NCBI GenBank assembly: GCA_027345565.1
Contig: DAHWIF010000010.1
Coordinates: 1 to 23,066, forward strand
DNA: 23,066 nucleotides
From: Candidatus Micrarchaeota archaeon
Lineage (GTDB): Archaea; Micrarchaeota; Micrarchaeia; Micrarchaeales; Micrarchaeaceae
Reading direction: 5' to 3'
The translations under genes and the position numbers were made by a program. Below are positions 3,078-7,765 of the stretch, piece after piece (the stretch's first letter is position 1; the number at the start of each line of letters is the position of its first letter). The notes beneath the pieces were generated by a model that was not told where the DNA came from, ran no database searches, and saw nothing but the letters and a program-made list of their open reading frames with translations.

Positions 3078-3145
3078 AGCAAAGGATATTAAGCTGTAGC
3101 GCGCATTACTGGCGTTGCAGTTATGCAAAAAAGCCGGCGATACGG

Positions 3146-4825
3146 GTGAGGAAGCTTGACAGGAGGTTGAAAAGCAGGCTGCTCTGCACGGCCCTGGCGG
3201 CAGTGCTCGTGTTCGATTTATTGTATGCTGTAATTACGGTGAGCGGCCCTACAAACCTGAGCGAGGAGTATGCGTATGCTGGGCTGGCGCTTAATGCGAT
3301 ACACGGCCAGGTGAACCTACAGCAGATCGATGCAAGCAGGCTGCTCCAGTATCTCCCGATAGCTGCGTTCTACGAAGCGTTTGGAGTAGGCATATACACG
3401 AGCTCAGCCTGGAACATGGTATGCTTCCTTGGCACTGTGCTCGTCGCCTTCCTGATAGGCAGGGAGCTATACGGCCCTATCACGGGGCTTACATCAGCGC
3501 TGCTGGCCAGCTTCTTCACCCCAATAGTCAAGGTCTCGTCGACGCTCGACATAGTCATGTCGATGGCGTTCTTCATCTCTTTGGTAATGCTTGCATTGCT
3601 CTACGGGCGCAACCGGGGCTCAAAGGCGTGGATGTTTGCGGCCGGGGTGTTCGTGGTTGCTGCGCAGCTGACGATACCTATCGCGCTTATAGCCGCAGCT
3701 GCGCTTGCCCTCTATCTTGTACTGGAGCTGGCAAGGAAGAAGATCGAGCTCAAGCTCGTGCTGTATGTGCTTGCAGGCGCGGCTGTTGCAGCTGCCGTCG
3801 TGCTGGCGTTCAGCTACTCCGTGTCTGGGAATCCCATCTCGATTGCGACGTTGAACGGCGCGTATTACTCCAATCTAACCATGACGGACACCGCGTATGG
3901 CATAATAGGCGCCCCGATTGTCTATGCAAACGGATCCAAAAACGACCTATTCGGATGGTATATGCATTATTACCCCGGACAGATGTTCGAGTACTCTGCG
4001 ATGCAGGCGATTGTAGGAGGGATTTTGCACGGCAACATAACGCTGTGGTCCGTATGGCAGCAGCTTTATAGTCAAGCAATGATTGCAGGCTTCTACTTCT
4101 ACGCTGCACTTGCAGCGGCAATATACCTGACGATAAGATGGGATAGGCGCCTATACTACCCGCTCATGTGGCTAGCGGTAGGCTTCCTGTTCCTGCAGTT
4201 CGCCCCGCAGGGCGGGACGCTCTCGCCCTTCAGGTACATACTGATTTTCAGGGATGTAAGGTACCTGACCGCGCTCGCGGTGCCGACCAGCGTTTTGATA
4301 GCGGTAGCCCTCTCCCGTTTTGTAAGCGGAAAGGGGCACGGCGCGAAGGGCCTAACCAAGCGGAAAATAAGGATATCGCTGGCCATCGCGGCTGTAGCAT
4401 TCCTAATCATCACTTCAATACCGGCCAACATAGAGTGGCACAGTTACATATACACAGAGTATTACTCCCTGCATGCACTGGCAGGGATAATACAGCACAC
4501 TGGAGGGATAACAACTGTGTATTACCCGTCTGTGGACTGGCCTGACATGATAGTATACCTGCATGACAGCAGCCAGCTGAACCTCCAGATGCTTGACTGG
4601 ATATCGAACTGTACGTATTTTGCTGCTGGCAGCTACGTGGTGCTCCCGAACGTCACCAAAGGATATGCACCGCAGTGGCCGTACATAAATGACACAAGCG
4701 CGTACTGCCCAGACATGCACCTTGTTGCCGAACCTGTAGTGCAACCCCCATATGGCACTGCAGGGTTCAACCAGATGTACATAGCACTCAAGAATCAGCA
4801 GAGGCTCTATTACGTGGTGCCATGA
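3146..4825 (+). CDS. GT-C fold glycosyltransferase (PMT/ArnT-like)
   Basis: N-terminal TM followed by the acidic motif EEYAY, the segment LVAFLIGRELYG..GL.SALL typical of PMT_2/ArnT proteins, a DVRYL motif, many TM segments and an extracytoplasmic C-terminus. Confidence 0.75.
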   Translation: MRKLDRRLKSRLLCTALAAVLVFDLLYAVITVSGPTNLSEEYAYAGLALNAIHGQVNLQQIDASRLLQYLPIAAFYEAFGVGIYTSSAWNMVCFLGTVLVAFLIGRELYGPITGLTSALLASFFTPIVKVSSTLDIVMSMAFFISLVMLALLYGRNRGSKAWMFAAGVFVVAAQLTIPIALIAAAALALYLVLELARKKIELKLVLYVLAGAAVAAAVVLAFSYSVSGNPISIATLNGAYYSNLTMTDTAYGIIGAPIVYANGSKNDLFGWYMHYYPGQMFEYSAMQAIVGGILHGNITLWSVWQQLYSQAMIAGFYFYAALAAAIYLTIRWDRRLYYPLMWLAVGFLFLQFAPQGGTLSPFRYILIFRDVRYLTALAVPTSVLIAVALSRFVSGKGHGAKGLTKRKIRISLAIAAVAFLIITSIPANIEWHSYIYTEYYSLHALAGIIQHTGGITTVYYPSVDWPDMIVYLHDSSQLNLQMLDWISNCTYFAAGSYVVLPNVTKGYAPQWPYINDTSAYCPDMHLVAEPVVQPPYGTAGFNQMYIALKNQQRLYYVVP

Positions 4826-4884
4826 TGCCCCACAGCAGGCAAGCTTTAAGTATGTTAGCAGAGCGTCATTATAGGTGGTTTGCC

Positions 4885-5361
4885 TTGCAGCCGCGGACAA
4901 GGTCGCAGACGGCTCTCGAATACCTGATAACCTACGGCTGGGTTGTACTGGTAATTGCGATAGCGTTGGCGGCGCTGTACACGCTCGGTGTTTTCAACAC
5001 GAGCTCCATCACCCCAAACACATGCATAATGACAGGCTCATTCTCATGCATGAGCGCGACGCTGGCATCGAACGGCAGCATGCATGTGCGCATATCCCAG
5101 GATACGCCTGACCCGATAAACATAACTAAGGTAGCGTGCGATGGCAACCAATCGCTGATACATGCAACGACATTGACTCCACAGGTTTACGTGGCGTCAG
5201 GCCAGAACGCTACATTCAGCATAACGTGCTGGCGGAACGGCGCGGTGTTCTCTGCGGCAAGCGGTACGCTATACAATGGCTACTTGCTTGTTAGCTACAC
5301 GGACCTCGCCACAGGGTTCAATTACACAACGGTCGGCACGCTTGCGCTCAAAGTCGGATGA
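4885..5361 (+). CDS. Archaeal type IV pilin-like protein with class III signal peptide
   Basis: RS/QTALEYLITYGW with Glu at +5, then a hydrophobic stretch; 4 Cys. Start placed at TTG 4885 after a GGTGG RBS-like motif (the ORF track extends to 4822). Confidence 0.8.
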   Translation: MQPRTRSQTALEYLITYGWVVLVIAIALAALYTLGVFNTSSITPNTCIMTGSFSCMSATLASNGSMHVRISQDTPDPINITKVACDGNQSLIHATTLTPQVYVASGQNATFSITCWRNGAVFSAASGTLYNGYLLVSYTDLATGFNYTTVGTLALKVG

Positions 5362-5370
5362 ATGAAACTT

Positions 5371-5972
5371 TGAAATCCCTGCCTTCAGGCAGGTCGGGTA
5401 AAAAAGCTCGTAGTTTTCTGGTCCTTCTTATTGATATGCAATCAATGCTGCCGTCGGACCGCAGAAACGTGAGTATACGGAGAGGAACGAATGGAAAAAT
5501 ATAAACCCGCCGGCCAAGGGCTCTGCCCATCAGCACAACTGGCAGCATGTGATTTTCGTAACGGAATACCGTTGCAAAATGTTAAGAAACTCAAAGACGG
5601 CAGAAATAATACCGCGTGCGATATCCGAAGAGACGGAGAACTGCAGGATGGACACAAAAGAACTTGCATTTGGTGAGGACTATTGCGCATGTGCATATGA
5701 AGAGTCGATATTCCAAACACACTCTCAATCGCACAGGTTATACAGTTGCTGAAAGGATATTCATCATGCATTGTCTTCAAAGAAACGCCTTGACATCGTT
5801 GTAATATTCCAAAGGAAACTTCTAGCCTGTAGGATACAGCAACGGCGGTGTTGGCCCTGCAAATGAGGAAACGATAAAGAACTGCATCAGGAGGCAGGGA
5901 TCTCAGGCGTCCAGATGCAACTTGCAATGTAACTACAAGGGTACCACGGCCTTTAGGTCACGGATAGGTCAT
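5371..5972 (+). mobile_element. Degenerate IS200/IS605-family element (IS200-like, tnpA only)
   Basis: Left-end-like hairpin CCTGCC-TTCA-GGCAGG (5378-5393), a tnpA pseudogene, and right-end-like CCACGGCC-TTTA-GGTCACGG-ATAGGTCA (5944-5971). Exact boundaries are uncertain. Confidence 0.75.
5491..5932 (+). pseudogene. tnpA: IS200/IS605 HUH (Y1) transposase pseudogene
   Basis: Joining frames by hand gives ...NWQHVIFVTEYRCKMLRNSKTAEII...KELAFGEDY / AHVHMK / VDIPNTLSIAQVIQLLKGYSSCIVFKETP* / YSKGNF*PVGYSNGGVGPANEETIKNCIRRQ. HUH motif HVH is at 5688-5696; the conserved FW Trp is TAG at 5823-5825; the catalytic Tyr position is TGC (Cys) at 5883-5885. Confidence 0.85.
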
Positions 5973-6057
5973 CACTACTTGCGCATTTCAGAATAAACTT
6001 CTTTGCTCAAAGTCGCTGTTAGCTTCGCCAATTATCTATTTTTCAACTTCCCGCTCT

Positions 6058-6102
6058 TAATATACAGATATATTTATATATGTTTTGATATGTATATATT
6101 AT
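6058..6102 (+). promoter_or_regulatory. AT-rich region with TATA-box candidates upstream of the MNT gene
   Basis: TTTATATA at about 6073-6080, roughly 25 nt before ATG 6103, consistent with a leaderless archaeal promoter. Confidence 0.5.
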
Positions 6103-6687
6103 ATGCCGTACAAGACAATTCTGCTGAACACCGATGCATACAACAGGGTCAGCTCTGCAAAAAGAAGGCTGTCTGAAAAGCTCCATCAAAAGCTGAGTTT
6201 CGGTGACCTTTTCAACGAGGTTTTCAGCAAGAACATAGATTTGATGGAGATGGATGACGCTATTAGAGACTACATAAAATCCTTCTGCGGCATTCTTGAA
6301 GGCAAAGAATATGTACTCGGGATACTACTTTTCGGATCTGTTGCAAAGGGCGCGGACTATAACAGGTACAGCGATATAGACCTACTTGTGGTGGTATCCT
6401 CCAGGAAATACGCAGGGAAAGTGATGGACGAGGTACATGACGCAAAGAAAAAACTGCGTGATAAGGAGCGCACGCTGATTTCCAGACAGCTGCCCACGTT
6501 CATAAGTCCCATTGTCCTGGAGAGCGAGGATCTCAAGAAGTTCAGGCCAATATACCTTGACTTCCTAGATTACGGCATAGCGCTCTTCGAGCGCGACAAT
6601 GTCCTTACCGATTTCCTCAACGACATGCGCAAGATAAAGCACAGCAGGGAGTTCAAGCCATATGAGGTGCTCAGATGGCAGATATAA
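6103..6687 (+). CDS. Minimal nucleotidyltransferase (MNT) antitoxin with an N-terminal RHH/VapB-antitoxin-like extension
   Basis: Pol-beta NTase motif ILLFGSVAKG...SDIDLLVV; N-terminus KTILLNTDAYNRV...LSFGDL. ATG 6103 preferred over TTG 6085. Confidence 0.85.
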   Translation: MPYKTILLNTDAYNRVSSAKRRLSEKLHQKLSFGDLFNEVFSKNIDLMEMDDAIRDYIKSFCGILEGKEYVLGILLFGSVAKGADYNRYSDIDLLVVVSSRKYAGKVMDEVHDAKKKLRDKERTLISRQLPTFISPIVLESEDLKKFRPIYLDFLDYGIALFERDNVLTDFLNDMRKIKHSREFKPYEVLRWQI

Positions 6688-7091
6688 CCGCGATAGATAA
6701 CGCAAAGGTCTGGCTTAATACTGCAGATGTTACAATGAAGGGCAGAATATACACAACTGCATTGTACAGCATGGAGATGGCTGTTGAAATCGCGCTCAAG
6801 GCGCTGCTGATGGAATTCGGGATAAACGTCCCCAAGCTCCACAACGTGATGAACAGCCTGAAGGCAGTGTTCGAGGAAAGGAGGAGCGCTTTGCCTAAGG
6901 AATTTAGGGACAAAGAGGCATTCGTACTTGATACCTATAACGATTTGTTGGAGATCAGGCCTCTTGTAGGATACATATTCGAGATGAATGCAAGCATAGA
7001 CGTAGAGGAAAAAGCGAAGAAGTACATCAAGGCATCGAAAGAGGTTGTTGACCTCTGCGATCTTGCAATAAGACACATAAGCAAGAAATAG
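6675..7091 (+). CDS. HEPN domain protein (putative toxin of an MNT-HEPN pair)
   Basis: AVEIALKALL...PKLHN HEPN signature and Rx4Y (RPLVGY). Overlaps the MNT 3' end by 13 nt; GAGGTG RBS at 6664-6669. Confidence 0.85.
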   Translation: MADITAIDNAKVWLNTADVTMKGRIYTTALYSMEMAVEIALKALLMEFGINVPKLHNVMNSLKAVFEERRSALPKEFRDKEAFVLDTYNDLLEIRPLVGYIFEMNASIDVEEKAKKYIKASKEVVDLCDLAIRHISKK

Positions 7092-7094
7092 CGC

Positions 7095-7202
7095 ACCTCA
7101 TTCAAGACCGAACCTGATCAGAGTCCTCTTCCTGCATGGCAGACCTGTACAACAGAAAAAGGAACTTGAAAGTCCACGACTTCAGTCGTGAGAGGATGTC
7201 AC
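7095..7202 (+). mobile_element. IS200/IS605 right-end remnant (possible decayed TnpB reRNA/omegaRNA-like segment)
   Basis: Perfect hairpin CACGAC-TTCA-GTCGTG (7175-7190) followed by AGAGGATGTCAC, the usual shape of IS605/IS1341-type right ends. The upstream portion is only loosely similar. Confidence 0.65.
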
Positions 7203-7765
7203 ACCCTTCCTTTAGACTCCCCTTTCGATACGCCGCTAGCAATGATGTGTGACAGCCTAAGTAAGCTCATGGTTGTTTTCAAGATACGTCTTGTTTCTAA
7301 CTTATCCATATGGCTTTGCACGTAAAAACCGTCTATGGCTGCACTCTTCTTCTGCGATTCAAGCAGCGCCGCCCTCTCCTTTATCTCTGCGCCTGTGTCC
7401 CTCTCAAGCGCCTTTAGCGCCTTCATGAGCAGCGAAGGCCTTGGCCTGTGCCTTGTTATGACCAACACACCGACATCAAGCTCTTTGCCAAGCCTCCTAA
7501 TGTTGAGTATGTTCAGCCCTGCCAGCGCTATTCCGTTGAATGCCAGGACTCTCACCTGTTCTCTGAATCTTGACCTCTTTATCATGCCTATTATCCTGCT
7601 CGTCGCGTCGCTGCCGTCCACCGTCACGCGCGTGGAGAGCACCCCCTCAATTCCGTTCAGGGTGCCGATTACGCATACCAACAACGCCCTTTTGCCGCTT
7701 CCCCTCCCATGGCCTTTTCCTATCGGCCCTGTTGCGATAGCGGCTACCCTAACGCCACCCTTCAA
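7199..7765 (-). CDS. DUF99 family protein (endonuclease V-like)
   Basis: Motifs IEGV...VTVDGSDAT, NGIALAGLNI and LRLSHIIASG. TTG start, 7 nt after the rpoL stop. Confidence 0.8.
   Translation of the reverse strand: MKGGVRVAAIATGPIGKGHGRGSGKRALLVCVIGTLNGIEGVLSTRVTVDGSDATSRIIGMIKRSRFREQVRVLAFNGIALAGLNILNIRRLGKELDVGVLVITRHRPRPSLLMKALKALERDTGAEIKERAALLESQKKSAAIDGFYVQSHMDKLETRRILKTTMSLLRLSHIIASGVSKGESKGRV

Follow-up and report, generated by a model that had tools for sequence, protein, structure and literature searches.

A toxin-antitoxin (TA) gene pair of the MNT-HEPN type (MNT, minimal nucleotidyltransferase) lies between hairpins of IS200/IS605 format in a 23,066-nt stretch of a Candidatus Micrarchaeota archaeon genome (assembly GCA_027345565.1, contig DAHWIF010000010.1; the whole stretch is called the window). 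The question raised by this locus is whether positions 5355-7202, which also contain a dead tnpA gene, form one composite mobile unit or were put together from independent arrivals. The original prediction, made from the sequence alone, had considered both. The comparisons described below make it probable that 5355-7202 is a patchwork, in which three separate mobile-element pieces accumulated and partly decayed at a variable junction between a pilin-like gene and a DUF99 gene. The pieces are a dead IS200-type element with tnpA only, a self-contained MNT-HEPN cassette with its own AT-rich leader, and a solo right end of about 45 nt (H3). A composite was not supported because the tnpA element has its own right end, because DNA foreign to insertion sequences (IS) separates the HEPN gene from H3, because the junction varies among genomes of the same genus, and because the TA family is not linked to IS ends. 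The features of the locus were assigned as follows.

5355-5972, plus strand: decayed IS200-type tnpA-only element, by end-to-end alignment with the elements of relatives G005 (locus L032) and G035 (L009)
5366-5393, plus strand: H1, left-end subterminal hairpin with its 5' flank AACTTTGAAATCC, by match to the G005 left end
5486-5897, plus strand: tnpA pseudogene (Y1 HUH transposase), by tblastn against the G035 TnpA
5940-5972, plus strand: H2, decayed right-end hairpin with terminal ATAGGTCAT, by alignment with the G005 and G035 right ends
5973-6055, no strand: spacer between the IS relic and the TA leader, without a match in the own genome or the fetched loci
6056-6102, plus strand: AT-rich, TATA-like TA leader, by a 24-nt match upstream of the G027 homologue
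6103-6687, plus strand: MNT, minimal nucleotidyltransferase (antitoxin-type), by PF01909 and PF18765
6675-7091, plus strand: HEPN-domain protein (toxin-type), by PF05168
7098-7134, no strand: non-IS host DNA between the TA pair and H3, by homology to the G003 spacer and to the own contig C11
7157-7202, plus strand: H3, solo right end of a tnpB-only IS605-family element with terminal GGATGTCAC, by consensus match at 32 of 35 positions

IS pieces were searched on the DNA level in 40 relatives (G-numbered), and TA homologues were searched in 201 genomes of the order. In metagenomes, 47 loci were examined for a TA/IS unit, and four runs were compared as contigs, in which rare excision circles are undetectable. 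The genome of the window comprises 600 kb in 16 contigs, with an estimated completeness of 84%; the window is its contig C7. The only runs that contain the stretch are labelled mine drainage metagenome.

H1, tnpA and H2 together are one complete, dead, tnpA-only IS200-type element that is no longer mobile. The relic was aligned from its left to its right end with intact tnpA-only elements of G005 and G035, with 75% identity between 5361-5472 and the G005 left end; the left boundary is uncertain by about 10 nt. The G005 element is intact and encodes a TnpA of 160 aa (PF01797, E 2.4e-30). The G035 TnpA gave PF01797 with E 1.9e-27, and six places in G035 matched the tnpA stretch of the window in the DNA search. 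Comparison of the relic with the G035 TnpA by tblastn resulted in three segments in three frames (E 2e-19 and 9e-11), with at least two frameshifts and three in-frame stops. Against the Pfam Y1_Tnp family (PF01797) the relic reached E 0.012, below the cut-off, and this was the sole Y1_Tnp signal in the genome. The Y1 HUH transposase that defines such elements is therefore present as a relic only, in a single dead copy and without the multiple copies of a mobile family; an intact TnpA was not found in the genome at its 84% completeness. Subterminal hairpins without terminal inverted repeats, typical of IS200-type elements, are present, H1 intact and H2 decayed.

H2 consists of arms 5944-5951 and 5956-5963 around a TTTA loop, with two mismatches and one G-T pair, and the element ends with GGTCAT at 5972. 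The fold was no better than that of shuffled sequences (z +0.38; 123 of 200 shuffles folded as well), because two mismatches lie in the stem. H2 aligns column by column with the intact right ends of the G005 and G035 elements, terminal GGTCAT included, and is therefore a decayed end and not noise. The right ends of these two elements terminate with ...GGAGATCAT and ...GGAGGTCAT, respectively, and are located directly 3' of tnpA, as is H2 in the window. The three hairpins, the dead tnpA and the intact MNT-HEPN pair described in the original prediction were thus all recovered at about the positions given there, H2 as a decayed end by alignment. Its placement of the TA pair where tnpB normally sits was not upheld: the element is tnpA-only and has its own right end directly behind tnpA.

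This arrangement also bears on the proposal that the locus was formerly an IS605-type tnpA-tnpB element, in which the TA cassette replaced tnpB and would serve as an addiction-type retention module in place of TnpB-guided homing. The position of the TA pair, with tnpA on one side and on the other a right end of the kind that follows tnpB, speaks for this. Against this, the tnpA has its own right end directly 3', as in the tnpA-only elements of G005 and G035, no tnpB remnant was found in the window, and non-IS DNA lies between the HEPN gene and H3. Among the relatives' loci examined there was no tnpA-tnpB element, the tnpB elements there being tnpB-only, and the TA homologues were not linked to IS. 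A replacement of tnpB is accordingly considered extremely improbable.

An exact direct repeat of 11 nt, GCTCAAAGTCG, is present at 5346-5356 and 6005-6015, with the IS200 relic and a further 32 nt between its copies. The left junction, where homology with G003 stops, falls within the first copy, and the second is located in the spacer 5973-6055. IS200/IS605 elements insert without target duplication, and an 11-nt repeat is unexpected for the family; a second 11-nt repeat in the same 2.2 kb is evidently due to chance. Chance suffices for a repeat of this length somewhere in 2.2 kb, and explains the exact position at the junction less easily.

The likeness of the outer hairpins that the original prediction had noted was confirmed. 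H1 (CCTGCC-TTCA-GGCAGG) has its stem at 5378-5383/5388-5393 with AACTTTGAAATCC immediately 5', and H3 (CACGAC-TTCA-GTCGTG) has its stem at 7175-7180/7185-7190, flanked by AACTTGAAAGTCC 5' and AGAGGATGTCAC 3'. Both have 6-bp stems, TTCA loops and near-identical 13-nt 5' flanks, and neither folded clearly better than shuffled sequences individually (plus strand, z -1.2 and -0.2). The layout is not due to chance, because GAAA.TCC followed by a stem of at least 5 bp with a TTCA loop was found at five sites in the 600-kb genome: H1, H3 and the left ends of three tnpB relics. The latter three sites have about 130 nt in common (hairpin, TATA-like stretch and start codon), and one of them leads into a truncated TnpB N-terminus, which identifies the layout as that of an IS200/IS605 end.

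H1 is a left-end hairpin and H3 a right-end hairpin, and they are not two ends of one unit. Their likeness is explained by the common build of left and right ends in the local IS family (GAAA/GGAA..CC, a G+C-rich stem and a TTNA loop, with GGA..TCAY added in right ends). Assignment of the outer hairpins to different IS families with different TnpAs had been named beforehand as evidence against a single unit; what was found are different element subtypes of the family, a tnpA-only left end and a tnpB-only right end. A non-IS structured RNA common to H1 and H3, whose stems differ with compensatory changes, was considered and rejected; Rfam gave no match at either hairpin, and both match IS ends. 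The three tnpB-type solo left ends of the own genome (C3:19037; C4:33384, minus strand; C11:~1447) break off after about 130 nt. The one on C11 lies before a gene for a PMT_2-type glycosyltransferase and a paralogue of the pilin gene, a pair that is also present at 3146-5361 of the window.

Judged by sequence, H3 is a right end left on its own; the tnpB-only IS605-family element to which it belongs has multiple copies in relatives. Positions 7168-7202 were identical to the consensus right end at 32 of 35 positions, with the hairpin and the terminal GTCAC, and H3 is the sole site of this right-end subtype in the own genome. Similar ends were found at at least 23 places in nine of the 40 relatives (80-96% identity); 17 places were fetched, and the end was located in 16 of them. 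Conservation among these right ends extends through ...GGGAGGATGTCAC and stops there, with the terminal GTCAC. The right-end hairpin is conserved as well (87.5% of cells paired, a value reached by none of 500 shuffles), and three of its pairs show compensatory changes. A full tnpB accompanied five of the 16 located ends, none or a fragment accompanied eight, and three were cut by contig ends; two of the eight are miniature elements whose left end lies about 200 nt before the right end. The element of G009 is complete: a left end, a TnpB of 411 aa (PF01385, PF07282 and PF12323) and a right end are contained within 1.3 kb, the left-end hairpin lying 1.28 kb before the right end. The two subtypes differ in that H3 has a TTCA loop and ends with ...GGATGTCAC, whereas the ends of the tnpA element have a TTTA loop and ...GGTCAT.

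In the window, homology to the tnpB-only element reaches back to about 7156 only. No match to a tnpB relic was found in the window or on its contig, so that H3 is not preceded by tnpB and a left end. The stem of H3 has a C-A mismatch, three of its 35 positions deviate from the consensus, and its last 4 nt overlap the DUF99 stop codon. In three runs the H3 end was present in short contigs of high depth, as a repeat would give. H3 was also considered as a CRISPR repeat; this was rejected on account of the scattered positions of the copies in relatives and of the full tnpB found immediately 5' of five of the 16 located sites. The two miniature elements without tnpB, L017 (G006) and L022 (G031), have their left-end hairpin at this distance of about 200 nt and are PATE/MITE-like. 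The own genome also contains an apparently intact tnpB-only element (L101, C3:~22850-24190) with its own left and right ends of the same architecture; its TnpB aligned with that of G009 over about 390 residues at 44% identity, and a cognate TnpA was not found in the assembly.

The MNT and HEPN genes are both open and co-oriented and overlap by 13 nt, as is typical of MNT-HEPN TA pairs. The MNT protein matched PF01909 (E 1.7e-7) and PF18765 (E 4e-7), and the HEPN protein matched PF05168 (E 8e-11). The MNT protein has an N-terminal extension of about 60 aa; its nucleotidyltransferase motif is intact, with G78-S79 and D91-x-D93 invariant in all six aligned homologues. R95-x4-Y100 and K54-x-H56 of the HEPN protein were invariant in 13 of 13 sequences (window plus 12 homologues), and W13 and the block E34-M35...E38 were also invariant in this alignment. 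The canonical HEPN motif Rx4-6H was absent from all 13 sequences, with no histidine at the place of Y100, so that RNase activity of the HEPN protein is an assumption. By analogy, the two genes most likely work as a TA pair in which the nucleotidyltransferase neutralises the HEPN protein.

MntA-HepT is a type VII TA system. Like MntA-HepT, the pair in the window consists of two small overlapping genes, the nucleotidyltransferase first and the HEPN gene second, with the G-S...D-x-D motif and Pfam hits for both proteins. Unlike MntA-HepT, its HEPN protein has R-x4-Y and K-x-H instead of Rx4-6H, and its MNT protein carries the N-terminal extension. The leader 6056-6102 has its 24-nt match at the same position upstream of the G027 homologue, and AT-rich leaders are also present in G027 and G008; it is regarded as a candidate promoter. 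No match to the spacer 5973-6055 was found in the own genome or the fetched loci. The sequence behind the HEPN gene was not significantly similar to the G027 cassette (18 of 500 shuffles reached the score).

TA homologues were found in 15 of the 201 genomes of the order. The comparison of their surroundings was based on 22 loci, of which 17 were from the order outside the own genome and five were metagenome relatives. The pairing of MNT and HEPN was kept in 16 of the 17 loci, and L039 showed MNT only. None of the 22 loci was located between IS ends, and one, in G035, had an IS200 copy nearby, on the opposite strand; apart from this neighbourhood, the recurrence of the pair with IS200/IS605 ends or tnpA that had been suggested as a check was not observed. 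In the five metagenome relatives neither a match to tnpA or tnpB nor a hairpin of this kind was found. With 60-63% protein identity, the homologues of G027 and G170, genomes from another family of the order, were the closest, and their surroundings are unrelated: the former is flanked by VIT1 and M48-peptidase genes, and the latter adjoins a FAD-binding gene. A scan of genome contigs with the single MNT protein gave no confirmed relative. The cassette is patchily distributed in the order and was evidently moved horizontally by a route other than IS200/IS605 ends. Direct repeats around TA cassettes were not general and were seen in G008 only, of 20 testable loci. At the G035 locus (L046, G035:C1:353405-356983) the tnpA-matching place lies about 300 nt downstream of MNT-HEPN on the opposite strand, with its right end towards HEPN; this is the sole neighbourhood of TA and IS outside the window among the loci examined.

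These counts were set against the idea that the TA pair is cargo. With H2 decayed, a TnpA supplied in trans would skip it and excise the single-stranded DNA from H1 to H3 together with MNT-HEPN. H1 and H3 flank the TA pair in the order and orientation that such an excision requires, H2 is in fact decayed, the ends of the two subtypes have a common architecture, and related IS200-type sequence is present in the same sample (contig X1, matching 5432-5511). A second copy of the H1...H3 unit was found neither in the 40 relatives and the 201 genomes of the order nor at the 47 metagenome loci or in the four runs, and the unit would contain host DNA that it has in common with the TA-less junction of G003. 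H3 has the stem mismatch and the three deviating positions mentioned above, and no TnpA was found in the genome. Movement as cargo by use of the distal right end is thus highly unlikely, with none of 22 TA loci between ends, a TA pair without hairpins in G008, and outer hairpins of different subtypes. The view that the 1.85-kb H1-H3 segment with its intact MNT-HEPN pair is a nascent cargo-carrying IS200/IS605 unit, mobilised by TnpA in trans, was judged just as improbable.

The junction itself was compared among relatives. Its flanks in the window are:

4822-5361, plus strand: pilin-like gene, an open reading frame with no Pfam hit
7199-7765, minus strand: DUF99 / Endonuclease dU gene, right flank of the junction (PF01949, E 1.4e-26)

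The last codons and the stop codon of the pilin-like gene are provided by inserted DNA; DNA homology with G003 ends after ...GCGCTCAAAGT at 5354. The pilin-like protein was 84% identical to that of G003 and 65% to that of G008, and the identities of the DUF99 protein were 77% (G003), 70% (G008) and 56% (G011). The empty pilin-DUF99 junction that had been suggested as a check was found in G011, where the stop codons of the two genes are 1 nt apart. In G003 the pilin gene encodes 417 aa, the spacer measures about 95 nt, and the junction contains neither IS nor TA. G008 has an MNT-HEPN pair at the junction (33-38% protein identity to the pair of the window, against the 70% of DUF99 and the 65% of the pilin-like protein), without hairpins and without tnpA. 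The original prediction had named a relative of this kind as evidence against its composite; the G008 pair is a divergent one. DUF99 has other neighbours in G005 and G002. The comparison of the junctions in G003, G008 and G011 supports independent insertions at one hotspot, which the original prediction had held to be equally possible.

In G008 (L008, contig C8) MNT-HEPN is preceded by about 70 nt that are a degenerate duplicate of the 3' end of DUF99 (~3130-3212 versus 1990-2069; 0 of 500 shuffles). The G008 cassette is thus bracketed by direct repeats of the end of the target gene, and no recombinase gene was seen. No such duplicate was found before the TA pair in the window.

Positions 7098-7134, between the HEPN gene and H3, are homologous to the pilin-DUF99 spacer of the TA-less G003 and to C11:23868-23904 of the own genome (0 of 500 shuffles in both cases). 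They resemble the end of a V-ATPase subunit-I-like gene on its 3' side and appear to be a remnant of it; the name was taken from a reading of the C-terminal peptide. This remnant is located behind the pilin gene at the DUF99 junction both in the own genome and in G003 (L006, ~1409-1455). On C11 of the own genome (23361-23904) a paralogous pilin gene abuts the V-ATPase-subunit-I-like gene itself, suggesting that the pilin gene and its downstream flank were long ago duplicated as one piece.

The stretch was covered in its probable source run, the only one to contain all of it, by two overlapping contigs, with no alternative joint. The contigs of the four runs were also searched for a joint across the stretch; none was found, which shows nothing either way. 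A run of another study contained a TA pair that is about 93% identical (49 differences in 732 nt) and diverges into other DNA at 7133. Past 7133 this DNA matches the C11 gene at 24 of 29 positions beyond the end of the homology with the window (hand count).

A further explanation is that the IS relic and the TA pair arrived as one block by recombination from a donor, for example between paralogous pilin loci with the pilin 3' end and the V-ATPase-like remnant as arms, H3 being a separate arrival. Compared to G003 and G011, 5355 to about 7092 is extra DNA in one interval, and the 11-nt exact repeat (5346-5356 and 6005-6015) spans the left junction. In addition, the paralogous pilin gene on C11 abuts the apparent source gene of the 7098-7134 remnant, and the TA pair of the other study's run, about 93% identical, continues into C11-gene-like sequence. 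What lies between the copies of the 11-nt repeat is the IS relic with 32 nt and not the TA pair, which argues for two events, and the other 11-nt repeat in the same 2.2 kb evidently arose by chance. Upstream of the TA pair the contigs of the other run come to an end. Arrival as one block was considered unlikely.

For the preferred patchwork of independent arrivals, the identities of the pieces, the host DNA between the TA pair and H3, the junctions of relatives without the pieces and the lack of a TA-IS association are observations. The order of events, the deletion that would have left a solo end, and the function of the TA pair are inferred, and the following course is proposed. Horizontal acquisition would have brought the TA cassette with its AT-rich leader to the 3' end of the pilin gene. 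The pilin stop codon in use today would stem from an IS200-type element, or from a fragment that included one, which inserted between this gene and the cassette. A tnpB-only element would have inserted at the DUF99 stop and later been deleted to its last ~45 nt. So assembled, the locus is an ordinary patchwork of known kinds of elements.

Several points weigh against independent arrivals. H1 and H3 have the same orientation and stand in left-then-right order with the TA pair between them, which is the geometry that TnpA needs. To judge from their sequences, the tnpA-only and tnpB-only subtypes have ends so alike that a single TnpA may act on both and use H3 in trans. The pilin-DUF99 neighbourhood is common to four genomes of the genus, and two of them carry an MNT-HEPN cassette at the junction, as if something targets these cassettes to it. 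One of 17 TA loci, that of G035, has an IS200 copy as its neighbour; a rough estimate of chance (no formal test) would give less. Finally, since the genome is 84% complete, the lack of a TnpA means that it was not found.

Transposition of IS200, IS608 and ISDra2 proceeds by a single-strand 'peel and paste' mechanism catalysed by the Y1 HUH transposase TnpA. The relic in the window resembles these elements in its small Y1_Tnp-type tnpA, in subterminal, imperfect, mutually similar hairpins that replace terminal inverted repeats, and in the tnpA-only form of about 0.6-0.7 kb. It differs from them in that tnpA is dead and the stem of the right end is decayed. H3 corresponds to the right end of tnpB-only (IS1341-type) elements and their PATE/MITE-like derivatives, of which miniature and truncated forms are present in relatives. 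Unlike the tnpB-only elements, the window keeps only the last ~45 nt and has no tnpB, left end or guide-RNA scaffold region.

A precedent for a TA pair riding in a transposon is given by the Tn3 family, for which TA pairs as part of the transposition module are described in PMC7157771. In that family, which also has a different mechanism, many copies of the transposon contain the TA pair, which is not the case here. IS200/IS605 is reported by a 2026 survey as the most abundant IS family in archaea (PMC13343696). A TA-carrying IS200/IS605 element did not turn up in the literature search, which is no proof of its absence from print. If the composite were true, it would provide a route by which IS200/IS605 elements, which normally carry tnpA and tnpB only, acquire and spread a TA module. 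The evidence points instead to a junkyard junction in a very small archaeal genome, at which a dead IS and a stray IS end have collected next to a TA cassette of horizontal origin. Of practical value are the clean left-end and right-end signatures obtained for the local IS200/IS605 subtypes. The locus also documents that these genomes commonly contain solo ends and miniature derivatives, and it flags one junction at which two species of one genus carry two different MNT-HEPN cassettes.

The gene at 4822-5361 was classified as pilin-like by its N-terminus, which appears to contain a class III signal-peptide-like motif; this is a reading by eye and not the result of a tool. The pilin-like gene of G003 (L006, 152-1405) has a Ser/Thr-rich C-terminal extension of about 240 aa, which is absent from the genes of the window, G008 and G011.

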